Origin: a virus | Taxonomy: Duplodnaviria; Caudoviricetes | Length of the DNA stretch: 56,325 bases | Direction: 5' to 3' (one strand) | IMG/VR virus record: IMGVR_UViG_3300031524_001649 | Coordinates: 1-56,325 of that record | Shown: piece after piece, positions 2,848-30,698 of the stretch | Layout of the letters: each line of letters begins with the position of its first letter | Position numbering within the stretch: the first letter of the stretch is position 1 | Position numbers and translations under genes: made by a program | The notes under the pieces: generated by a model | Databases searched by the model: none | What the model was told of the DNA's origin: nothing | The model's input: only the letters and a program-made list of their open reading frames with translations

Positions 2848-3555
2848 CTAGTTCTTGGAGGCTGTGGATTTGCTCTTTCGTGAGCCGCTGGAGTGCTTCC
2901 TTGCGGCAGCGGACGAGCCGGTTGTAGTCCGCTTTCTCTTGCCGGTACGCTTGGAGGAGTTTCCGGTACGTTTGCCGGCACGCTTTTCGGGTCCCTTTGC
3001 CGCTGCCCGCACAGGCGGGACAGCCGTCTCCGTGGCAGTCAAGGCAAGGGTGGGGATTGCCAAAGGAACATCCGCAGGCGAGGCAGAAATGGGCAAAGTC
3101 CCGGTAACGTCACCGGGGCTGCTGCATGACTCGTCGTCCTCCTCGTGGTACTTCAAGGGGCGGTTGTCCATTAAAATGGCATACAGCCGGCGGTCGATGT
3201 TCTTTCTCGTCCACAAGGGCAAGCCATTGGGCAGCTTGCCGCCGAATAGTTCTCGCAAGGCCCGGATGCCCGTGGCTTCACACACTTTTGCCCAGAGCCG
3301 TTGGTGTTTCTCGCACTCCTCTTGCGCGGTTGCGAAGGTTTTGAACAACCGCCGTTTCGGATTCACGAAGTCCCACATCTGCCGCGGTACACCGTCGGTG
3401 GCTGGGACCAAGACTCGTACCGTCGCCTGAAAGCGTGGCGACACCGGAATGCCGTAGACTTCCCTGCGCCAGACGATGCGATACTGTTCTGGCGAGAACC
3501 AGAATTTCTCCATCGTGGCCCGCGAACCGCGCTTACGCTTGCGTTGGAACTCCAC
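2848..3555 (-). CDS. Hypothetical protein with basic low-complexity C-terminus
   Basis: GAGG RBS and GTG start; in operon. Confidence 0.65.
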   Translation of the reverse strand: MEFQRKRKRGSRATMEKFWFSPEQYRIVWRREVYGIPVSPRFQATVRVLVPATDGVPRQMWDFVNPKRRLFKTFATAQEECEKHQRLWAKVCEATGIRALRELFGGKLPNGLPLWTRKNIDRRLYAILMDNRPLKYHEEDDESCSSPGDVTGTLPISASPADVPLAIPTLALTATETAVPPVRAAAKGPEKRAGKRTGNSSKRTGKRKRTTTGSSAAARKHSSGSRKSKSTASKN

Positions 3556-3564
3556 TTACCCACC

Positions 3565-4017
3565 TCAGCCTTGGTTGGCGGCCATCTTGAGTCCCGGCGT
3601 CATGCGCTTGACCGGCTCCACGCTGAGTTGCCGGCTGATCTGCTTGAGGGCTTGGACGTACTTGCCTTGGACCTCCAGCGTGCGGTAGTGAGCCTGCCGT
3701 TCGGGGTTCGATAAGTTGGCCTCGTCTACCGCCTGGTTGCGCCGAAAGGCGCGGAACAGCTTGAAGCGGGCCAAGTCGCCGTGGCGAGCGTTGTACACGG
3801 CCGCCTCAGAGTCGGTGAGCACTCGCAACCCGCTCCCTTCGGTCTTGATTGTTGCGGGCCGGCCCAGGCACCGTAGCCCGTGTTCGATTTCCTGCCGGAG
3901 CTGCATCAGGGCGAACTGGTACTCGCGGGTGCCCTCCATTTCGCCGGTGATTTCCTCAATCTCGGTGGGCGAGAGGTAATCGCCCTTCTGCAAATGCTGC
4001 ACGTCGATGATCTTCAT
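3565..4017 (-). CDS. Hypothetical 150-aa protein directly downstream of the pentamer array; candidate accessory factor
   Basis: GAGGAG RBS before ATG at 4017 (MKIIDVQHLQ...); start is 23 nt past the last array repeat. Confidence 0.75.
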   Translation of the reverse strand: MKIIDVQHLQKGDYLSPTEIEEITGEMEGTREYQFALMQLRQEIEHGLRCLGRPATIKTEGSGLRVLTDSEAAVYNARHGDLARFKLFRAFRRNQAVDEANLSNPERQAHYRTLEVQGKYVQALKQISRQLSVEPVKRMTPGLKMAANQG

Positions 4018-4040
4018 AGTTCTCCTCGCATTGGAAGGGG

Positions 4041-4633
4041 GTTCATTCAAGGAAGCCCTCGCTTGCGAGAAGGCTTCGTGGAAGGAACCTTACCACGCCC
4101 TACCATGCCGCACCCGACCGGACCTTACCGTGGATTCATTCCAGGAAGCCCTCTCGTGAAAGAGAGCTTCGTGGAAGGAACCATGCCCAGCCATACCTTA
4201 GCCCGCCCCGCTCAGTCCAGCCTCGCCACGCCTTACCGAAACACGCCGTAGATTCATTCAAGGAAGCCCTCTCGTTGAAAAGAGGGCTTTGTGGAAGGAA
4301 CCTGACCGTACCAGACCCCACCTTGCCGCGCCGTACCCGGCCCCACCACAGAAGATTCATTCGAGGAAGACCTCGCTTACGAGAGGGCTTCGTCGAAGGA
4401 ACCGTGCCTTGCCTCACCAAGCCCAACCCCGTCCCGCCAAACCGCACCATACCGGACTCGGTTTCACCCGGCCCCGCCACACCATGCCCTAAAAGGTTCA
4501 TTCCAGGAAACCCTCTCGTGAAAGAGGGCTTCGTGGAAAGAACCACGCCTCGCTTCGCCGCGCCACACCTGGCCCCGCCACACCTCATCTCGCCCCGCCA
4601 TGCCTAGTTCCGGCCCTCTCGCAAGAGAGGGCC
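4041..4633 (-). repeat. Hairpin-repeat / GGY-NN pentamer array; putative multi-guide ncRNA, not a canonical CRISPR
   Basis: Five conserved repeats at 4041-4089, 4134-4182, 4252-4302, 4355-4403, 4496-4544 (minus-strand consensus GGTTCCTTCCACGAAGCCCTCT-loop-GAGGGCTTCCT(G/T)GAATGAAY). They alternate with tracts of 8, 13, 9, 17 and 12 phased pentamers at 4090-4129, 4183-4247, 4303-4347, 4404-4488, 4545-4604. A perfect 9-bp leader hairpin lies at 4612-4633. Confidence 0.93.
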
Positions 4634-4650
4634 AGAGCCGAGTTTCTCCA

Positions 4651-5226
4651 TCAGGCTGCCGCCACAATCTCGAAGCGGCCGAAGCGCGGCCGTCCATCCA
4701 ACAGGCCCGCCATGCGCCCGGCGGTGTCCACGAAGTCGATCACTTCCTTGGCGTCGAACACCTCCTCCAGGTAGTGGACGGTGAACTTGCACTCCCAATT
4801 CTTGAACATCGGCCGTGTCCGCATCACGCGGCTCTGTCCCACGACCACCCCGGCCACGTAGCGGAACCGCTCGTCTTCCCACAGGGTCTCGGGCGTCTTG
4901 GGACCGTCGTAGATCACCGGGAAATTGCCATCCACGATGATGGCGCTCTTGGCGTCCTTTCCCTTCTTCGTTTTCTTGGCCCCGGCGACGATGGTGCCTT
5001 CAATGACTTCGCCCGGAAGCACAGCCCGCCCCTGGTCGTCCGCGTACAGGCCGCCGAGGAACTCCAGGCGGGCCAGTTCGGCATGGTCTTCGTCGGTCTT
5101 CTTCCGCTTGCTGGTGACGGCCTTCATCGCCTTGGCAAACTTGTTCATGGGGTTGGCAAGTTGGCCGTTGTGCATCAGCAACGGGGCGACACCGCGAATG
5201 TGGAAGTCGATGGTCTTGTAGCTCAT
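4651..5226 (-). CDS. Solitary Cas7/RAMP-like RNA-binding protein (191 aa)
   Basis: GAGG RBS, ATG at 5226. N-terminal strand IRGVAPLLMHN, LPGEVIEGTI (cf. iPGSslKG of Csm3/Cmr RAMPs) and C-terminal Gly-rich loop AGRMAGLLDGRPRFGRFEI; abuts the array. Confidence 0.75.
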   Translation of the reverse strand: MSYKTIDFHIRGVAPLLMHNGQLANPMNKFAKAMKAVTSKRKKTDEDHAELARLEFLGGLYADDQGRAVLPGEVIEGTIVAGAKKTKKGKDAKSAIIVDGNFPVIYDGPKTPETLWEDERFRYVAGVVVGQSRVMRTRPMFKNWECKFTVHYLEEVFDAKEVIDFVDTAGRMAGLLDGRPRFGRFEIVAAA

Positions 5227-5304
5227 TTGGGAACCTCGTTTTTTTGAAACAGGGTACTTGAAAGTTTCGTTGTTCAAGGAGACCTTACCCCAACCAATCT
5301 TGTG

Positions 5305-5511
5305 TTATCCTTGACGCCCGATGCCCTTTCCGCGGCCAGCACGCGGGTGAAGCGGCGAGTAGTGGTCATGGTAGGCTGGCGGTTGGAGGAGCATGCGGTA
5401 GGCCCGCTTCTTGCCACACTTCGGACACTTGAAAGGACCCTTGGCGCTACGATCCTGCCACGCCTCGAAGTAGGAATCGCAGGCCCGGCAATGCACGTCG
5501 TACAGCGTCAT
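5305..5511 (-). CDS. FmdB-family zinc-ribbon protein
   Basis: MTLYDVHCRACDSYFE..KCPKCG pattern. Confidence 0.75.
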   Translation of the reverse strand: MTLYDVHCRACDSYFEAWQDRSAKGPFKCPKCGKKRAYRMLLQPPAYHDHYSPLHPRAGRGKGIGRQG

Positions 5512-5750
5512 GCGGGCACCTCCAAGGACTCGTAGCGCTTGACCTTCGGCGGAAACTTGTGCTTGACCTGCTTGGAAAGTTCCGCCAGGATGCAGTTGAA
5601 AGCGGCCATGTAGTTGGCGACGTGGTGCAGTCGGGTGAGCAGTTCCTTGCTCGGCCGCACGTGGTCGAAGACCAGGGCCTTCATCTCGGGCCAGAACGCC
5701 GGGTGGATGTCGTGTTGCTCAAGGATCAGTTCGAGTTGCTCACTGGTCAT
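5508..5750 (-). CDS. Hypothetical protein
   Basis: GGGAG RBS, start MTSEQ; stop overlaps the next start. Confidence 0.6.
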   Translation of the reverse strand: MTSEQLELILEQHDIHPAFWPEMKALVFDHVRPSKELLTRLHHVANYMAAFNCILAELSKQVKHKFPPKVKRYESLEVPA

Positions 5751-5792
5751 GGTTGCGTCTCCCGTGTGTCGTAGTAGTGGCCTCCATTTGGT

Positions 5793-5828
5793 ACAACAAC
5801 GTCCGTGCGACCAGTCAGGGTGAAATTC
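5793..5828 (-). promoter_or_regulatory. Phage promoter motif, copy 1
   Basis: GAATTTCACCCTGAC-N13-GTTGTTGT on minus strand; same spacing in three copies; GGAGG just downstream. Confidence 0.7.
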
Positions 5829-6066
5829 TGTCGCCAATCAAGCCTTTCAGCGTTCGGTAAAGCAAGTCCCACGCTAAAAGCCGCTTGCGCGGAAAATCTG
5901 TCACCATGCCGTGTCTCCAGGGGCGGCCGGCGGCGTCACGCAGGTCGGCGAAGTAGTTGCCGCGAGTCTGGCTTCCCGTGCCGAGGTTCGTGATGGTTCC
6001 GGTGGCAAGAGTCCGTTTCCGGGCCTCGCAGCCGCCGGGCCAGAGTTCGATCCGAATCACCAGCAT
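5815..6066 (-). CDS. Phage hypothetical protein (MLVIRIELWPGG...)
   Basis: Compact ORF just after the MTase stop; realistic composition. Confidence 0.6.
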   Translation of the reverse strand: MLVIRIELWPGGCEARKRTLATGTITNLGTGSQTRGNYFADLRDAAGRPWRHGMVTDFPRKRLLAWDLLYRTLKGLIGDRISP

Positions 6067-6068
6067 CG

Positions 6069-7343
6069 TCAGGATGACCCCCACACCGCGCGATGGGGGT
6101 AGTCGAGCGGCGAGAGGCCGTTTTCGGCGGCGATGCGCTGGCAATAGTCCCGGTCCAGTTCGATCAGCGTGCAAGGCAGATTGATGCGTTTACACACACG
6201 CAACGTCGTGCCCGTGCCGCCGAAGGGGTCCAAGACCTTGCCGCCCGGTGGCGTAGTCAGCTTGACACACCGCTCGACCAGCCCTTCGTTGAGTTGCGTC
6301 GGGTGCCAGGTGCGGCGCTGCTTGCTGTTGCCCGTGACCCGTGGAAAACTGAACACGTCGCTCAGACTGAGTTTTCCGGTGGCGTGCTGCCACGTCTTCC
6401 CTTCACGAATGCTGCGGATTACCGTGTCGCTCACGCCATATTGCGAGGCCAACTCGACATTTGAGCCGGTGGATTGATAGATGCGGACGGCATCTTCATT
6501 GCTCAGTTTTGCCAGTCCGTTCTGCTCCCCCTGGGGATGCTGTCCGCGGCCTTTGGCTTCCTTGTCGTTGTTATTGTCAGCATCGGAGCCGATAAACAGG
6601 TGGGCTGGATTGCAGCAGCCCGGATTGTCACAGCTATGCAGTACCAATTGGCCTACTGGGTCAGTGCCGTGTGTCAAACGCCACATAAGGCGTGTTGCCA
6701 CGTACAGCTTCTCGCCGATTCGGAAGCGGCCGTAGCCTTCGCGTTTACCGGCCAGCCACTCCCAGCATTCCGTCGCTCCGCGGCGGCCGATTTTGGCCAG
6801 GAACCGTTCAACATCCTCGGGGCTCCAAGGCGGCAGCGGAAGTGTGTTCCGGTCGTAACAATCACCCGAAGCCACGTCGCCGGGGACGCGCCCGCGGGGA
6901 TCGGCCCGCTTGTCGCCGTTCTCTTGCCGCCAACTCGGTACGCGGACCGCATCCGGGTAGAGTGGGGCGTGGCACCAGCGGAGCCGCAAGAGCGGCCGGT
7001 GATTGTTCCCCAGGTCATGGTGGTTGTGCTGCCCAAAGGTGAACGTTTGGACGCACGGCTTGGCCTCCAATTCTCCGGCCCGGAGCCCGACGATCTCGGT
7101 GACAATCCGGCCGACCTCGAAGGTCCATTTCGAGTTGTAGCTGAACCAGACCGTGCGGGCCTTGAGCACGAAGGCTTGGAGCCAGCGGCGCAGCATCGCT
7201 ATGTACTCACCCTCGTTCAGCCGATCCCGGTAGCTGTCGTAGCCCAAGCCGATGTTGTCAGGCGGGTCCCCGAACAGGGTATCCACGGGCGCAAGGGTTT
7301 CGAGCACGTCCAGGCAGTCGCCGTTATAGAGGTGATACTTCAC
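6069..7343 (-). CDS. N4/N6 DNA methyltransferase (beta class) carrying an in-frame HNH endonuclease insertion
   Basis: GTG start overlapping the upstream stop; GDCLDVL, DPPD (motif IV variant), HPTQ, LDPFGGTGTT; insert contains CWEW..GYG, LHSCDNPGCCNPAHL and an HTH. Confidence 0.85.
   Translation of the reverse strand: MKYHLYNGDCLDVLETLAPVDTLFGDPPDNIGLGYDSYRDRLNEGEYIAMLRRWLQAFVLKARTVWFSYNSKWTFEVGRIVTEIVGLRAGELEAKPCVQTFTFGQHNHHDLGNNHRPLLRLRWCHAPLYPDAVRVPSWRQENGDKRADPRGRVPGDVASGDCYDRNTLPLPPWSPEDVERFLAKIGRRGATECWEWLAGKREGYGRFRIGEKLYVATRLMWRLTHGTDPVGQLVLHSCDNPGCCNPAHLFIGSDADNNNDKEAKGRGQHPQGEQNGLAKLSNEDAVRIYQSTGSNVELASQYGVSDTVIRSIREGKTWQHATGKLSLSDVFSFPRVTGNSKQRRTWHPTQLNEGLVERCVKLTTPPGGKVLDPFGGTGTTLRVCKRINLPCTLIELDRDYCQRIAAENGLSPLDYPHRAVWGSS
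6354..6880 (-). mobile_element. HNH homing-endonuclease-like insert bounded by 8-bp direct repeats
   Basis: CACGTCGC at 6354-6361 and 6873-6880, 519 nt (173 codons) apart; removing the insert restores PGDVFSFPRV. Confidence 0.7.
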
Positions 7344-7588
7344 TTGTGGCTCCGTTTCACGGCCGCATAGGTGCCAACCCAGTTGCCCAGGCCGTAGGCG
7401 ATCACAGCGGGAATGCACCTTTCCACGATCAAGACCGTGGAAAAGAGCGTGCAGACGTAAAGCACGACGGCCAGGTTGGCAGCCAGAGCGGCGCACCGCC
7501 GTTGCACGGACTCGACGCACCAGGTCCACACGTAATCCAGCACTGTCCCGGCCACGAACGCGAGGAAGAAAATGCCGACATCGGTCAT
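7340..7588 (-). CDS. Small membrane protein (3 TM)
   Basis: Hydrophobic; overlaps both neighbours by 4 nt. Confidence 0.7.
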   Translation of the reverse strand: MTDVGIFFLAFVAGTVLDYVWTWCVESVQRRCAALAANLAVVLYVCTLFSTVLIVERCIPAVIAYGLGNWVGTYAAVKRSHK

Positions 7589-7845
7589 TGTCCGGGCAAC
7601 TCCAATCGGGGCTTCGTTGGGGATGGGACGGCCTTCCGCAACCCAAGAGTAAGAACAGGGACCAAATCGGCGTCGCCGAAGACCTCGCCGCGCAAGGTGT
7701 ATTCCAGCGTGATCGAGGCGTCTTCCGTGCCGTGCTTGTTGATGGCTGCCTCCAGGGCACGGAAGATTTCGGCGAGACGGGCCGGTGTGAGCTGGGCCAG
7801 TTGCACGCGCTGAAGGAGCAGAGGAGGAATTGCAAACATAATCAC
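7585..7845 (-). CDS. Hypothetical protein
   Basis: Translationally coupled in operon. Confidence 0.6.
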   Translation of the reverse strand: MIMFAIPPLLLQRVQLAQLTPARLAEIFRALEAAINKHGTEDASITLEYTLRGEVFGDADLVPVLTLGLRKAVPSPTKPRLELPGQ

Positions 7846-12549: not shown

Positions 12550-13374
12550 TCAGAAGTTGGTGAAGAGAACTTCGATCTTGTTGCTGCACTCGCCCCGGCG
12601 CTCGCAGGCCCCGCGGCGGGGCGTGTCGCGCTCGATGCGATTCCAGTCGGCGAAGAAGCTGTCGGCGGCCGGCGACTCGGAAACCACCACCCTTGCGCTG
12701 GCTGCCTTCAGCAGCCCGACCATCGCCGGGTAGTCGATCCGGTAGCGATATTCCTTCTCATGCCCGACATACGGTGGGTCCACATAGATCAAGGTGTCCG
12801 GGCCAGTCTTGTAGACCCGCTCGATGGCCGCCAGTCCATCCTCGTGCAACAGTTCGACATCGCGGACACGATTGGCGGCCGGAAGCACCCGCAGGAACCA
12901 GTCGGCCCAGACAGAGGGCGACGGCTTGTGCGCGGCGGCGCACTTGTCGAGCGACCAGGTTGACGAGTTGCCGTTGCCGCAGTAGAACTGCGCGCCCTGG
13001 GCCATCAGCAACACCGCCTCCTCTATGTCACCCGGCGGCGGTAAATTGCGCCAATTGGCGGCCGTGTAGGGCGTGGCCCAAAGCAGGGCGGCCAATTGTT
13101 CGGGCTGTGACTTGATCGCCCGCCACATGCCCATGATGCGGTCGTCCAGATCGTTGATGATCTCGATGAACGCCTTTCGTTTGGCCAACAACACGGCGGC
13201 CGAGGCGCAGCACGGCTCCATGTAGACCCGGTGCTCTGGAAAGTGGGAGACAACCCACTTCGCGATGGTTGCCTTGCCGCCGTATTGGCGATAGGTAATC
13301 TTGGGTGTCGCCGTGCTCACAGTGTTTGCTCGAAGGTTGAGATAGTGACGGGCTGACCTAGGAAACACGCTCAT
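12550..13374 (-). CDS. Dam/D12-class N6-adenine methyltransferase
   Basis: YGGK, EP(CCASAAV), INDLD, YVDPPY; start may be GTG at 13320. Confidence 0.85.
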   Translation of the reverse strand: MSVFPRSARHYLNLRANTVSTATPKITYRQYGGKATIAKWVVSHFPEHRVYMEPCCASAAVLLAKRKAFIEIINDLDDRIMGMWRAIKSQPEQLAALLWATPYTAANWRNLPPPGDIEEAVLLMAQGAQFYCGNGNSSTWSLDKCAAAHKPSPSVWADWFLRVLPAANRVRDVELLHEDGLAAIERVYKTGPDTLIYVDPPYVGHEKEYRYRIDYPAMVGLLKAASARVVVSESPAADSFFADWNRIERDTPRRGACERRGECSNKIEVLFTNF

Positions 13375-13386
13375 TGTGGGTGTTCT

Positions 13387-13932
13387 CTATCGCCGCCTCT
13401 GGATCGCCGTGCAGTACGCGCCGTTCAGCGAGCTGTTCTGCAACAGTCGGGCGTTCTCCTCGCCGTAGGCCAGAAGCACGGATGGACCACCGGAGTTGCC
13501 CTTGGCCCTGGTTCCGTCGGGTCGATAGAAGTACAGTCGCCCCTCCAGAAACAAAGCGCCGACAACCTTGCCCCAGACATGCTCGAAGAACATCGCCGTC
13601 TCCGTCCGCGCGAAGACCAAGGCGATTCCGTTGCCGTGCCGGCTCAGGTGATCCAACCACAGACCGGTCTGTTGACCATAGGGCGGATTGAGCCAGATGC
13701 GGCCGAACCACCGCAGTTGCAGACCATCTTGCGGCGGGGCGTAGTGGTGCTTGGCCGTCATCCACGGCTGGCCTGGAGCGGCACAAGGGTCGAGGTCGAA
13801 GGACCCCAGTGTGTCGATTATTTCCGGCGGCGTCAGCCAGCAGTCGGTTTGTCCTTGCACGGCCCGGGTATGGCTTCCGATACCTGTCTTCGCTCCATGC
13901 CTCGCCCGTGCGAGCTTGACAGGTTCAGTCAT
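13387..13932 (-). CDS. Phage N6-adenine methyltransferase
   Basis: WLTP..FDLDPCA..WLNPPYG..ARTET. Confidence 0.88.
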   Translation of the reverse strand: MTEPVKLARARHGAKTGIGSHTRAVQGQTDCWLTPPEIIDTLGSFDLDPCAAPGQPWMTAKHHYAPPQDGLQLRWFGRIWLNPPYGQQTGLWLDHLSRHGNGIALVFARTETAMFFEHVWGKVVGALFLEGRLYFYRPDGTRAKGNSGGPSVLLAYGEENARLLQNSSLNGAYCTAIQRRR

Positions 13933-15247
13933 AGGTATCCGCCTGAAAGGTCGTGTGAACGCCGATTTCGATCCGCTGCCGAGCCGTCTCGAAGCTTTCG
14001 GGTTCGAGTTCTATCCCGACGAACCGATTGCCGGTCAGCAGTGCGGCGATGCCCGTCGAGCCCGACCCCATGAACGGATCGAGGACCAGCCCGCCGCCGG
14101 GTGGCGTGACGAGGCGGCATAGATATTCCATGAGTGCGCGAGGTTTGACGGTGGGGTGGTTGTTCTCGACCTGGCCTTCACACGTGCGGTCTCGCTTCGT
14201 GGCCTTGGCGCAGTAAAAGAAGCGTGAGGCACCGCCTGAATCGCCATGTTGGTTGTGCGGCCCGGAATGCCCGCGAAGGAAACTGGTCACGTTCTCACCG
14301 GGATACGGGGCGATAAGCCGTTTCATCGCGCCGCTTTTCGTGATGCCGCTTTGCTCGTCGAGCAACCTGCCCGCTTCCTCGTCCAATAGCAGATTGGCTG
14401 GCCAACGTCCCTTGGCATCACCGCCGCGTGGGCCGGGCGTCGCAGCGAAATTGGTCGAACCGCGGTCGGAGTAACGCTTGTTGGCCGTTGTCTCGCCGTC
14501 GCGCAGCCCGCCCTCACCGGTACCGATTCGCGAGCCGTCGATGTTCAGGCCCGCGACGCCATGGCGCTGCGCGTTCTCGGCGAATGTGCCATCGAGTGGC
14601 TTCATTGCCAGGATAATGGGTTCCCATGCCGGTTTCAGAGACGAGCCCCAGCCGTCCCAACGCCTGGCGATTTCGGTGGCCGGCGCCGTGTCGAGGATCT
14701 CCACGTTGCCGGTCTTGCCGTGCCGCTGGCGATTTTGGAAACTGTCGCCGCGGATGTCGGGTTGCTGGCGGCGGCCGACGCTTTCCCGGGTCGCCCCGGC
14801 CAGCTTGTCGAGGGCCTTCGACATATCGTGCGACTTGGGGAAGCCGGAACCGTAGAGCCACATCAGGCAATCGCGGATCTCGAAACCGGCATCTTCGATA
14901 GCACAAGTCAGACGGTGAAAAGTCCGCGTGCCACCAAACGCCAGGAGCATCGCCCCCGGCTTCAGCATTCGGAGCACCTCGGTCCAAAAGTCGGACTGAA
15001 AGGCCGTGTCGCCGCCGTCCCAGGTCTTGCCCATGAAACCCCGCGAGCCGATCCGCATGCGGCCAAAGGGTGTTTCCGGATCGTTGTTTCGCGGGCTTCC
15101 CTTTCGGCTCGCCTGCGTAAGGTGATAGGGCGGGTCGCAGACACATGCCGTGAACTGCCCAGCCTCTAGTGAAGGGAGCACCTCGCGGGAGTCCCCTTGG
15201 TAAATCGTGGCCTGGTCGAACGTGATGGACATGTGTTTGTCACTCAT
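13925..15247 (-). CDS. N4/N6 DNA methyltransferase (beta class)
   Basis: CDPPY, GFPKS, KPAWEPI, HPTVKP, LDPFMGSGST. Confidence 0.9.
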   Translation of the reverse strand: MSDKHMSITFDQATIYQGDSREVLPSLEAGQFTACVCDPPYHLTQASRKGSPRNNDPETPFGRMRIGSRGFMGKTWDGGDTAFQSDFWTEVLRMLKPGAMLLAFGGTRTFHRLTCAIEDAGFEIRDCLMWLYGSGFPKSHDMSKALDKLAGATRESVGRRQQPDIRGDSFQNRQRHGKTGNVEILDTAPATEIARRWDGWGSSLKPAWEPIILAMKPLDGTFAENAQRHGVAGLNIDGSRIGTGEGGLRDGETTANKRYSDRGSTNFAATPGPRGGDAKGRWPANLLLDEEAGRLLDEQSGITKSGAMKRLIAPYPGENVTSFLRGHSGPHNQHGDSGGASRFFYCAKATKRDRTCEGQVENNHPTVKPRALMEYLCRLVTPPGGGLVLDPFMGSGSTGIAALLTGNRFVGIELEPESFETARQRIEIGVHTTFQADTYD

Positions 15248-15390
15248 GGAATCAACCAAAGGAGAAGTCGAAGAATGGTGCCAACCGTCGATCAACACGC
15301 CCCAGCCAACCCGAATGAGGAGAAGTTGGCTCCCGGCCGCTTCGCACGGCGGCCCGCGTGCGGCTTATGGGCCTATTGGCGTAGTGGCGA

Positions 15391-16713: not shown

Positions 16714-16733
16714 GACTTGGCCCTCCTTTTGTA

Positions 16734-16769
16734 ACAACAACAAAATGGCCGCAAGTCAGGGTCGAATTC
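16734..16769 (-). promoter_or_regulatory. Phage promoter motif, copy 2
   Basis: GAATTCGACCCTGAC-N13-GTTGTTGT, intergenic, just downstream of the sigma gene. Confidence 0.7.
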
Positions 16770-16777
16770 CGGCAAGA

Positions 16778-17407
16778 TTAGCAAGGTTTTTCAAGTGGCG
16801 TTGGATCGTTGCGGGTCCAATAGTCCAGGATGCGGGCCTTCACTTTGCGGAACATGAGATTCGCTGTGGCCCGCGAGACGCCGAGGCGTTGGCCGATCTC
16901 TTGGAAGGTGTAGCCTTTCTCGTGGAGCCGGAGGCATTGCCGTTCGATGTCCGACTGACAACAGGCATTCATCACGTCCCGTAAATCCACGACCGCGAAA
17001 TCAGAGCAGGCTTCCAGACTCTCTGAGAGCACGTTTGCGATGGCTGGGGCGGCGAGTGGGCATCCGTTGTGGCGAGCCAAAGCGCTGGATTGCCGCGGCA
17101 CCCGGATGGTGTGCTCAATGGGCAACAAATCCTGCATCTTGTTGTTAATGGCTCGTCCCAGCCAGCAATTCACTGCGCCCACGTGTACCTTGGGACTGAG
17201 CTTATTGACGGCCTGGACCAAGCCGACATTTCCGGCACTGACTAAATCGTCGCGGAGGTAAGCGATGCTCGGCATCCGACCAATCAAGGCATTGGCCTTC
17301 GTAACCACCAGGCCCAAGTTGTTGAGGATCATGGCCGTGCGGGCAGCGGCGTCACCGGCCACTACCGCCGGATACAATGCGTTGTTCTTCTCGATGGCTG
17401 ACACCAT
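16778..17407 (-). CDS. Sigma-70-family RNA polymerase sigma factor
   Basis: Region 2 NNLGLVV..DDLVSAGNVGLVQAV; region 4 YTFQEIGQRLGVSR. Confidence 0.85.
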   Translation of the reverse strand: MVSAIEKNNALYPAVVAGDAAARTAMILNNLGLVVTKANALIGRMPSIAYLRDDLVSAGNVGLVQAVNKLSPKVHVGAVNCWLGRAINNKMQDLLPIEHTIRVPRQSSALARHNGCPLAAPAIANVLSESLEACSDFAVVDLRDVMNACCQSDIERQCLRLHEKGYTFQEIGQRLGVSRATANLMFRKVKARILDYWTRNDPTPLEKPC

Positions 17408-28790: not shown

Positions 28791-28865
28791 ATCTCGCTTC
28801 CTCGATCAGGCTTACGCTGGCTCGTTTACGCACACTTCCTGCTCGGACATTGCTCCCCACTTGTT

Positions 28866-28901
28866 ACAACAACGAAACAGGGCCCCGTCAGGGTGAAATT
28901 C
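28866..28901 (-). promoter_or_regulatory. Phage promoter motif, copy 3
   Basis: GAATTTCACCCTGAC-N13-GTTGTTGT, intergenic, upstream of the helicase. Confidence 0.7.
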
Positions 28902-28934: not shown

Positions 28935-30011
28935 CTACATTGAAGCCAGACGGGCGGCGGCAATTTCGCAGTGCCGCTCTTCCGACTCGATGCCGATGCA
29001 AGCACGGCCGAGCGTCTTGGCCGCCAGCAGGGTCGAGCCGCTGCCGGCGAACGGGTCCAGGACCAATCCGCCAGTGGGCGTGGACAAGAGGGTCAGGAGG
29101 TACCGCATCAGCTTTAAGGGCTTGACGGTGGGGTGGTCGTTCTTTGGCCCCCGGACCGGATTGCGTTCCTTCGTGGCAGCCTTGGCGACATAGAAGAACC
29201 GACTCGCGCCGCCCGTTCGCTCGTCCAGCACACGCGCCGCCTCTTCGTCCAAGAGCAGGTTGGCCGGCCAACGCCCGGACGCCAAGTCGCCTGCGGGCGA
29301 CCGTTTAGCGATTTTCCAGCCGGCGTCCGTGATGGAGTCTGAGGGCGTGCGGATTGTGCTGGCCGTGCCGATCCTGCTGGCTTTGACGTTTATTCCGGCC
29401 ACGCCCCAGGTCTCAGCGTTGTGGGCCAGCGTGCCATCCAGCCGCTTCATTGCGAGGATGATGGGCTCCCAGGCTGGCTTGAGCGCATTGGCCCAACCGG
29501 TCCATTGCTTCGCCAATTCCGTGGCCGGAGCCGTGACGGCGCACTCCGCGGCCGGATTGTGCAAGTCGCCATAGACCTCGTTCGTGCGGCCATTGTCCGC
29601 CAACGAATAGCCGGGCCGGCCCAGCTTGGTGCCGACGACCTCGCGCCGGGCTCCCTTCGCTTTGTCGATCAGCACGCCGATGTCCGGGGCCTTGGGAAAG
29701 CCCTGACCATAGAGCCACATCAGGCAGTCACGAATCGCCCATCCGGCATCTTCGATCGCGCAGGCAAGCCGGTGGCACGTTCGCGTGCCGCCGAAGGCCA
29801 GCATCAATGCGCCCGGCTTGCAGACCCGCTGAATGGCTTTCCAATACGGGACGCCGGGAACACCGTGGTCCCATTCATGTCCCATGAAGCCGAGGCCGTA
29901 GGGAGGATCGGTACAAACGAAGTCTACGGAGGCTTCCGGCAGCGTCGGTAGCACCTCGCGGTTGTCGCCGCAGTAGAGCGTGATGTTGTCTTTCTCGTAG
30001 TAAGGCTTCAT
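28935..30011 (-). CDS. N4/N6 DNA methyltransferase, paralog of 13925-15247
   Basis: Start MKPYYEK; TDPPY, GFPK, KPAWEPI, HPTVKP, LDPFAGSGST. Confidence 0.9.
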   Translation of the reverse strand: MKPYYEKDNITLYCGDNREVLPTLPEASVDFVCTDPPYGLGFMGHEWDHGVPGVPYWKAIQRVCKPGALMLAFGGTRTCHRLACAIEDAGWAIRDCLMWLYGQGFPKAPDIGVLIDKAKGARREVVGTKLGRPGYSLADNGRTNEVYGDLHNPAAECAVTAPATELAKQWTGWANALKPAWEPIILAMKRLDGTLAHNAETWGVAGINVKASRIGTASTIRTPSDSITDAGWKIAKRSPAGDLASGRWPANLLLDEEAARVLDERTGGASRFFYVAKAATKERNPVRGPKNDHPTVKPLKLMRYLLTLLSTPTGGLVLDPFAGSGSTLLAAKTLGRACIGIESEERHCEIAAARLASM

Positions 30012-30532
30012 CGTTGCGGCTTGTATTCCAGGAGGAGCGTGCGGTCGGGTGCCTCGCGGGCGCGGTAGTCGCTCCACACGTTCAGGCCCGCGCCGCAGAA
30101 AAGGCCGTAGACCTTGTTGAAGCCGGCGCGTACGGGCGGCTCGGCGTTCGTTACGGACCCTGCCGCCACGGCGTCGCGCCACTGGGCCAAGGTTCCCGTC
30201 ACCACGGCCGCCGTGACGCCGCGAACCGTGGTCTCGGCCGTGACGAAGGGCATCCCGGCGCAGCGTTCCAGAATGTCGAGCACGTCTCGCTCGTCGGCGA
30301 CGACAAACACGCTGAACGACACATGCGACAAGAGGTTTGGCGCGAGGCCCACCGGGGCCTTCTGGTCGCAAATCGCAGCCAGGCAGCTCAGGAACTTTTC
30401 CGGCTCGGACAGCTCGCGCGACGAAGCATCGGCCGCACGCGCCGGGGAATAGCCTAGCACGTGCAGGCACGCGCCCAGGAAGGCGCGAAAGTTGACGGCC
30501 GGCGTGGTGATGAGCAACACTTCGGGATTCAT
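30008..30532 (-). CDS. Hypothetical protein, possible degenerate ThyX fold
   Basis: LLSHVSFSV and VVTGTLAQWR resemble ThyX EH.sfsF and vtgNlRew segments; no RHR motif. Confidence 0.4.
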   Translation of the reverse strand: MNPEVLLITTPAVNFRAFLGACLHVLGYSPARAADASSRELSEPEKFLSCLAAICDQKAPVGLAPNLLSHVSFSVFVVADERDVLDILERCAGMPFVTAETTVRGVTAAVVTGTLAQWRDAVAAGSVTNAEPPVRAGFNKVYGLFCGAGLNVWSDYRAREAPDRTLLLEYKPQR

Positions 30533-30698
30533 CGCGGAGCCAGGGGAAGTGTCCACGCGAGCGGCGGAACTGCTCCCGCCATTCACGCAGACCGGTGATG
30601 CCCGCCCACGAACAGTGCAGCGGGTGTGTTCTCCAAGAAACCCCGCCGGGGCCCCGGGCCACAGTACCGGGGCATGTCCGGCGGGGAGCAAATGACAC

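Follow-up and report, generated by a model that had tools for sequence, protein, structure and literature searches.

Introduction

Systems named VIPR, for Viral Interference Programmable Repeat, have been described in three bioRxiv preprints of 2026 (10.64898/2026.04.26.720920, 10.64898/2026.04.26.720927, and 10.64898/2026.10.15.759431). Here we describe a locus of this kind at positions 3565-5226 (minus strand) of the window, by which we mean the whole 56,325-nucleotide stretch of the IMG/VR virus record IMGVR_UViG_3300031524_001649 (Caudoviricetes). The published systems consist of a phage-borne minimal RAMP protein (Vipr), a vap accessory gene, and vrRNAs, each of which has 9-16 YNNGG repeats and then an invariable structured tail (10.64898/2026.04.26.720920). 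vrRNAs are called by YNNGG repeats of at least four units together with the invariable 3' tail (10.64898/2026.04.26.720920; 10.64898/2026.10.15.759431).

The vrRNAs read double-stranded DNA (dsDNA) with a 1-nt-skip code and repress transcription (10.64898/2026.04.26.720920). The same preprint gives the systems of SUSP1, with vrRNAs of about 100 nt, and of a P. fulva prophage as the exemplars of type II, names vap1 as the predicted DNA-binding protein of that type, and describes internal degeneracy of vrRNAs as frequent and reports no self-targets in its systems. Filament structures show one Vipr protomer per repeat, and the filament can also pair with single-stranded RNA (ssRNA) (10.64898/2026.04.26.720927). 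A vrRNA caller and a demonstration of phage-satellite competition were added in 10.64898/2026.10.15.759431. Experiments described in these preprints include work in E. coli with the systems from SUSP1 and P. fulva and with members of types III and V.

A sequence-only reading of the window had pointed to a candidate RNA-guided phage system and had matched it to VIPR. The match holds, as the three preprints describe GGY/NN repeats, one protomer per repeat, and a specificity code in the NN positions. We conclude that this uncultured phage very probably carries, on the minus strand of 3565-5226, a complete VIPR locus of the kind known from SUSP1 and P. fulva. In transcript order, vipr is followed by a leader hairpin, then by five vrRNAs, and last by a vap1 homologue (Table 1). 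The setting is also that of VIPR, namely a virus record with a two-gene locus (vipr plus one accessory gene). Our analysis establishes the anatomy of the locus, the homology of both proteins, the RAMP fold, the conservation of contact residues, the covariation of the tails, and the co-occurrence of arrays with homologues. This kind of system is already known from the 2026 preprints, and the locus is a further example that leaves the concept unchanged.

Table 1. Window coordinates of the features in the 3565-5226 region, in transcript order (MFE, minimum free energy).
Feature	Position	Strand	Details	Evidence
vipr gene, RAMP/Cas7-like guide-binding protein	4651-5226	minus	191 aa	homology, AlphaFold2 model, Foldseek
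Leader hairpin	4609-4636	minus	12 bp, 9-bp GC-rich core at 4633-4612	MFE fold, z -4.0
vrRNA1 guide tract	4545-4604	minus	12 GGYNN units, 10 canonical	script recount
Tail 1	4495-4544	minus	50-nt rod hairpin	MFE -32.1 kcal/mol, z -8.1; covariation
vrRNA2 guide tract	4404-4488	minus	17 units, 14 canonical	script recount
Tail 2	4354-4403	minus	middle-stem C-G pair of tail 1 replaced by G-C (compensatory)	alignment, covariation, MFE fold
vrRNA3 guide tract	4303-4347	minus	9 units, 9 canonical	script recount
Tail 3	4251-4302	minus	52 nt	alignment, covariation, MFE fold
vrRNA4 guide tract	4183-4247	minus	13 units, 9 canonical	script recount
Tail 4	4133-4182	minus		alignment, covariation, MFE fold
vrRNA5 guide tract	4090-4129	minus	8 units, 8 canonical	script recount
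Tail 5	4040-4089	minus		alignment, covariation, MFE fold
vap1-like accessory gene (P0002)	3565-4017	minus	150 aa	profile-profile hhalign

Vipr protein

The RAMP/Cas7-like call made earlier for the 191-aa protein was confirmed by homology and by structure prediction. A phmmer search of the PDB sequences returned 36pp_D, 'SUSP1 Vipr protein', with an E of 2.2e-36 over Vipr residues 4-187, which is full length. Identity was 40% to wV8 gp95 and 39% to phiSUSP1. The protein matched PHROG 4652 (function not assigned there) with an E of 1e-58, and its family gave 1,353 matches at E <= 0.001 in a large protein collection. Pfam and NCBIfam held no family for it.

The AlphaFold2 model, built from 33 sequences, had a pLDDT of 94.1. 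The sequence-only reading had proposed a Foldseek comparison against Cas7, Csm3 and Cmr RAMPs, and this search matched the RAMP fold, with 78 PDB matches at E <= 0.001 and Csm3, Cmr4, and type VII Cas7 at the top (E 6e-6 to 4e-4, TM score 0.44-0.57). The ESM Atlas search returned unnamed viral clusters only. Vipr shares with Csm3, Cmr4, and type VII Cas7 an RRM-based RAMP fold that includes a glycine-rich loop and a thumb and, according to the VIPR preprints, polymerization on guide RNA with a fixed period. In contrast to class 1 CRISPR effectors, however, its sequence identity to the top chains was just 8-18%, and no CRISPR array and no Cas-annotated open reading frame (ORF) among those scanned accompanied it. 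VIPR also differs from these effectors in having a 5-nt period with 2 informative bases where theirs is a 6-nt period with 5, and in having a repeat-constrained RNA as its guide.

Contacts reported for SUSP1 Vipr are H17 and D177 for G1, R138 and W178 for G2, E71 and R179 for Y3, K33 for the skipped target base, and K82, G87, K88, and R39 for the non-target strand (10.64898/2026.04.26.720927). In the phmmer alignment H17, K33, R39, E71, and K82 corresponded to H19, K35, R41, E73, and K84 of the window Vipr, and G87, K88, R138, D177, and R179 corresponded to G89, K90, R138, D177, and R179. Ten of the 11 contact residues were therefore retained, with W178 as the exception, and the ten were conserved in 21-33 of 33 family members.

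Guide array, leader hairpin, and tails

The letters of the array were taken from the minus strand of 4660-4001 and parsed by script. The tract sizes counted earlier (12, 17, 9, 13, and 8 pentamers) were the same in the script recount, and a single phase was kept within each of the five tracts. The earlier tally was reproduced as well, with GGY in 50 of 59 units and a pyrimidine (C/T) at position 3 in all 59. Positions 4-5, said to vary freely, used 15 of the 16 possible dinucleotides. The background frequency of GGY on the minus strand was 0.052 per position.

All five tracts lie on the minus strand, and a simple tract caller found no GGY tract elsewhere in the 56,325-base window. Tandem Repeats Finder reported only periods 15 and 20, inside the first tract; it was limited to multiples of 5 because just three of the five pentamer positions are conserved. 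The tails started at spacings of 93, 120, 101, and 141 nt, and an 18-nt tail motif had eight matches in the window (the five minus-strand tails and three on the plus strand inside three of the tails), where 0.04 were expected. Beside vipr the window thus carries tandem GGYNN (YNNGG) units, at least four per tract, with hypervariable NN and a conserved structured 3' tail, which is the pattern by which vrRNAs are called.

The leader hairpin sits between the vipr stop and tract 1. It had been seen earlier as a 9-bp hairpin 17 nt after the stop of the 191-aa gene; the hairpin is real, its core (GGCCCTCTC/GAGAGGGCC) begins 17 nt past the TGA, and the stem extends to the length given in Table 1. Its stem GCCCTCTC/GAGAGGGC repeats the inner-stem sequence of the tails. 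Two of the related loci described below, L081 and L101, have no space for a leader hairpin since their first tract begins about 16 nt past the end of the vipr match. The leader hairpin looks like a half-tail peculiar to the lineage of the window.

Each tract is closed by a conserved hairpin, as noted before, although its size was put at about 49 nt and is in fact 50-52 nt with 21 bp. We aligned 22 tails from the window and from loci L081, L001, L100, L101, L104, and L105. In the common structure, a base of 5 bp (GGUUC/GAAUC), a middle stem of 5 bp, and an inner stem of 11 bp are separated by two 1x1 loops and closed by a loop of 4-6 nt. In the alignment 93.7% of the paired cells could pair, compared with 37-58% after sliding the partner columns. 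Two-sided changes were present in 8 of the 21 pairs, and the observed covariation score was reached by 0 of 500 shuffles, for sequences that are related and a structure that was derived from the same sequences.

The MFE folds of tails 1, 2, and 4 were the consensus structure, while those of tails 3 and 5 left two middle-stem pairs open. Over the five window tails the energies were -22 to -32 kcal/mol and the z scores -4.4 to -8.1. The base of the hairpin takes in the last in-phase GGY unit. No Rfam family was returned, the sole row being mir-145 at an E of 0.69.

Accessory gene

The RAMP gene had been described earlier as solitary, and this did not hold, because a vap1 homologue comes after the array. 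The earlier note had left this conserved gene at 3565-4017 uninterpreted. A profile of the 150-aa protein (25 members) was compared by hhalign with a profile of the genes directly 3' of vipr in SUSP1, wV8, LESphi2, Medea1, LittleE, and Trine (146-267 aa), and gave a probability of 95.2% with an E of 2.6e-8 over 119 columns. The six proteins in the second profile align mutually. As single sequences the window protein and wV8 gp94 gave a BLASTP E of 0.037 and an hhalign probability of 1.8%, which is not significant. We took the SUSP1 gene after vipr as vap1 because it is the sole other coding gene between the SUSP1 vrRNAs. By profile comparison the window gene is a homologue of SUSP1 vap1, an identity that was itself assigned in SUSP1 by position.

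With a hidden Markov model of the family, 44 of the 106 related loci had a member beside vipr and on its strand; plain tblastn gave 28. Pfam, PHROG, and NCBIfam held no family for it, and tblastn found no match in the phages collection. The AlphaFold2 model (pLDDT 88.7) had a small alpha/beta domain at the N terminus together with a long helical hairpin. We considered a winged-helix or other DNA-binding fold and did not establish one: Foldseek gave nothing at E <= 0.001, with weak rows that included transcriptional regulators (MntR, MexR, the GntR family) and ScpB, and the VIA-align match was confined to the helical hairpin, with Z <= 7.6.

Related loci

We assembled 106 loci that encode Vipr relatives, 80 from viral_contigs, 10 from genome_contigs, and 16 from metagenome_contigs. 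The earlier proposal to look for pentamer arrays beside homologues gave a clear result, as at least one strict GGY tract was present in 85 of the 106 loci (66 viral, 8 genome, and 11 metagenome). All 262 tracts in these loci were on the vipr strand and 0 were on the opposite strand. Mononucleotide shuffles, one per locus for 80 related loci, gave 0 tracts. Tract lengths varied freely among the relatives. Many of the 21 loci with no tract were cut short or had degenerate repeats.

The nearest genomic relative of the cassette was L081, a locus in a metagenome-assembled genome (MAG) of the Pirellulales, with Vipr 79% and the Vap1-like protein 62% identical. This MAG has three vrRNAs with the same tail type as the window. 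Its guide sequences are different, however, and a large serine recombinase gene (5350-6996; Pfam Resolvase, Recombinase, Zn_ribbon_recom) and a helix-turn-helix ORF (7042-7527; weak matches, HTH_17 below the Pfam cut-off and AbiEi_4 just above) intervene between the array and vap1. The flanks are unrelated, so that the shared part is the vipr and vap1 cassette only. This suggests that the VIPR cassette is mobile as a module, and for the same reason the Pirellulales are a weak guess for the host.

A second relative, L001 (59% identity), had five tails of the hairpin type seen in the window, and no tract that passed the strict GGY caller in region 4150-5100. The 10 nt ahead of its tails read tgtgaagttt, tgtgatgtaa, and similar. 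Its repeats may follow one of the other consensus types that 10.64898/2026.04.26.720920 mentions.

Target searches

Targets were searched with the published xNN rule, in which each GGY was replaced by one wildcard, at a threshold of at least 80% NN. In the 56-kb genome itself the best NN match of the five guides was 0.62-0.78, under 0.80. Exact patterns for full vr1, full vr4, vr2 units 1-12, vr2 units 6-17, and full vr3 gave 0 matches in viral_contigs, and full vr1 gave 0 matches in metagenome_contigs. Full vr5 matched five loci in viral_contigs, which were three unrelated sequences of 33-55% GC with no flank extension, and we judged these matches to be chance.

Units 1-10 of vr1 gave one match in viral_contigs, within a portal gene (phrog_1216) carried by a complete, unrelated phage of 42,962 bp. 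The match covered 21 of 24 NN bases and was antisense to the gene; its skip base fell on codon position 1, not on the wobble position. In that phage the remaining four guides stayed at null level (P 0.44-1.0). A codon-aware model gave a chance of about 3e-11 per position in that phase. The match was not significant, since about 0.2-0.3 such matches are expected by chance, using a rough guess of the collection size.

With 3 mismatches or fewer allowed, vr1 was also searched in 401 genomes from the order to which the Pirellulales MAG belongs, and 29 of them gave a match (27 places with 3 and 2 places with 2 mismatches), compared with 3 matches for the reversed-vr1 control. The vr1 places were scattered. 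We rejected this excess as a target signal, as it agrees with the period-3 composition of GC-rich coding DNA, a property lost in the control. When 241 guides from related loci were searched against the phage of the window, the best score was 0.80, equal to that of the reversed-guide controls. The five window guides searched against 125 loci gave none above the shuffled null, except for the loci retrieved by the patterns themselves.

Weighing the readings

By its sequence the locus is genuine, apparently intact, and most like published type II, a type assignment that is based on two proteins compared with type II members only, and this basis is one of several points that weigh against the VIPR reading. 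Nine of the 59 units depart from GGY. W178, whose aromatic side chain stacks on G2 in SUSP1, is G178 in the window Vipr, at a position where the 33 family members have W in 12, G in 8, F in 6, and Y in 4. The tail is unlike SUSP1-type tails in sequence (compared with those of wV8, a SUSP1-like phage), and its fold is a simple hairpin, in contrast to the pseudoknot that the preprints give for the SUSP1 clade. Because the tail differs in both sequence and fold, the capping may differ from that of SUSP1. A natural target was not established for any guide in the collections searched, and no sigma-70-like promoter or intrinsic terminator was found on the minus strand of 3300-5700. Two metatranscriptome contigs fall in the locus: X19 (4536-4779, 0 differences) joins the 3' end of vipr, the leader, and the whole of tract 1, and X20 covers 4649-4813. 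Both were assembled from RNA libraries that may contain carried-over DNA, and as contigs they show no RNA ends.

Some of these points are also what a decaying or inactive VIPR remnant would show, with the genes and the array inherited and the guiding lost: the degenerate units, the lack of a target in any collection searched, and the replacement of W178 by G. We consider such a remnant improbable. Both the vipr and the vap1-like ORFs are intact and have Shine-Dalgarno-like sequences, and 10 of the 11 mapped SUSP1 contact residues are retained. In the five tails 21 pairs are kept, with compensatory changes among the copies. An 806-nt contig of the bog run X8 is identical over 4041-4846, with two shorter X8 contigs (3902-4068) differing at 8 and 12 letters. 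Internal degeneracy of vrRNAs is, moreover, frequent according to 10.64898/2026.04.26.720920.

Instead of silencing the DNA of competitors, the locus might be a VIPR-derived regulator of genes of the phage itself, or one that acts on RNA. Targets are not established, and the filament can pair with ssRNA (10.64898/2026.04.26.720927), both of which would suit this role. The own genome, however, has no site of at least 80% NN for any of the five guides, and the published relatives act on the dsDNA of other elements, so we regard a regulator of this kind as very improbable.

As a reading of the array, a repeat that codes for protein or a CRISPR array in degenerate form has next to no probability: an ATG ORF of 150 aa (4136-4588, minus) does overlap the array and the tails do form regularly spaced direct repeats, but the period of 5 is not a multiple of 3 and therefore the frame rotates with each unit, relatives vary freely in tract length, the stretches that separate the tails are constrained by GGY and are not free spacers, and no Cas annotation was found among the ORFs scanned (49 of 62 calls plus vipr and the vap1-like gene) and no CRISPR-like array was present. 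The absence of other cas genes and of a CRISPR, as stated earlier, was thus upheld for the ORFs scanned with PHROGs and for the repeats of the 56-kb record.

Proposed mechanism and comparison with SUSP1

By homology with the published systems, the transcript boundaries, the processing, the assembly of the ribonucleoprotein, and the DNA targeting of the VIPR locus would be as follows. Transcription of the minus strand of the region would give five vrRNAs of about 90-135 nt, each with 8-17 GGYNN units and a 50-nt rod hairpin as its 3' cap. Vipr protomers would polymerize on these, one per pentamer, and would sequester G1 (by H19 and D177), G2 (by R138), and Y3 (by E73 and R179) so that the NN dinucleotides are presented. 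The filament would then read dsDNA by the xNN code, skipping every third target base, with predicted footprints of 24-51 bp. A competing mobile element would thereby be silenced at the level of transcription, with help from the Vap1-like protein.

The locus resembles SUSP1 in its full-length Vipr homologue (39-40% identical), its vap1-family gene, and its several vrRNAs on the gene strand, which are made of GGYNN units and each end in a conserved structured 3' tail. It is likewise phage-borne, no self-targets were found, and the predicted vrRNA lengths are comparable (90-135 nt here and about 100 nt in SUSP1). In contrast to SUSP1 and wV8, where vipr and vap1 abut and the vrRNAs flank them, the array of the window is placed between the two genes. 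Its tails are 21-bp rod hairpins of unrelated sequence, while a pseudoknot is described for SUSP1-type tails, and residue 178 is G in place of W. The genome is also different in its 62% GC and its origin from peat metagenomes.

The locus is a clean five-guide example of VIPR from an uncultured high-GC peat phage, with the nearest chromosomal relative of its cassette in a planctomycete MAG. The vipr-vap1 pair tolerates another array position and another 3' cap, and the hairpin tail, with its internal compensatory changes, is a simple handle on the role of the tail, be it capping, processing, or filament termination.

We think it rather unlikely that the peat phages and the Pirellulales MAG form a distinct VIPR sub-architecture, with an embedded array, a 21-bp near-palindromic hairpin as a stop or processing signal, the leader as a 5' boundary, and a vrRNA1 that silences a portal gene. 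The tail hairpin could be a filament stop and processing signal because its base includes the last in-phase GGY unit. With its two helical turns it could be a substrate of a double-strand-specific RNase. The leader half-hairpin, specific to the window, would in this sub-architecture give the 5' boundary of the first guide. From the sequence match described above, the portal gene of a competing phage may be a silencing target of vrRNA1.

Phage genome, habitat, and expression signals

The 56,325-bp virus record encodes, by PHROGs, a tape measure protein, a DNA polymerase, a helicase, a primase, a ligase, several methyltransferases, and ParB-like proteins. No tRNA genes were found in the record, and the DNA polymerase had no relative in the phages collection. 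The stretch was found, among the matches listed, in 20 runs from 19 studies of peat, bog, permafrost, or wetland metagenomes. The two shorter contigs of bog run X8 cover the start of the vap1-like gene and tail 5, and their differences point to strain variation beside the array.

A 45-nt intergenic motif was present in three copies, read on the minus strand, at 5784-5828, 16725-16769, and 28857-28901. It is laid out as GAATTYSACCCTGAC, 14-15 nt, GTTGTTGTWMCAARWGG, and then a GGAGG-like ribosome-binding site, and every copy is directly upstream of a minus-strand gene block. One copy lies about 560 nt upstream of the vipr start, before a 109-aa ORF and an FmdB-type zinc-ribbon ORF. The motif may be a phage-specific promoter or leader and could drive the vipr operon. 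A sigma-factor-like protein is encoded at 16778-17407.

At least five ORFs had DNA-methyltransferase PHROG matches, at 6069-7835, 12550-15298, and 28935-30698, including one fused to an HNH endonuclease region. Together they make up an unusually heavy anti-restriction load.

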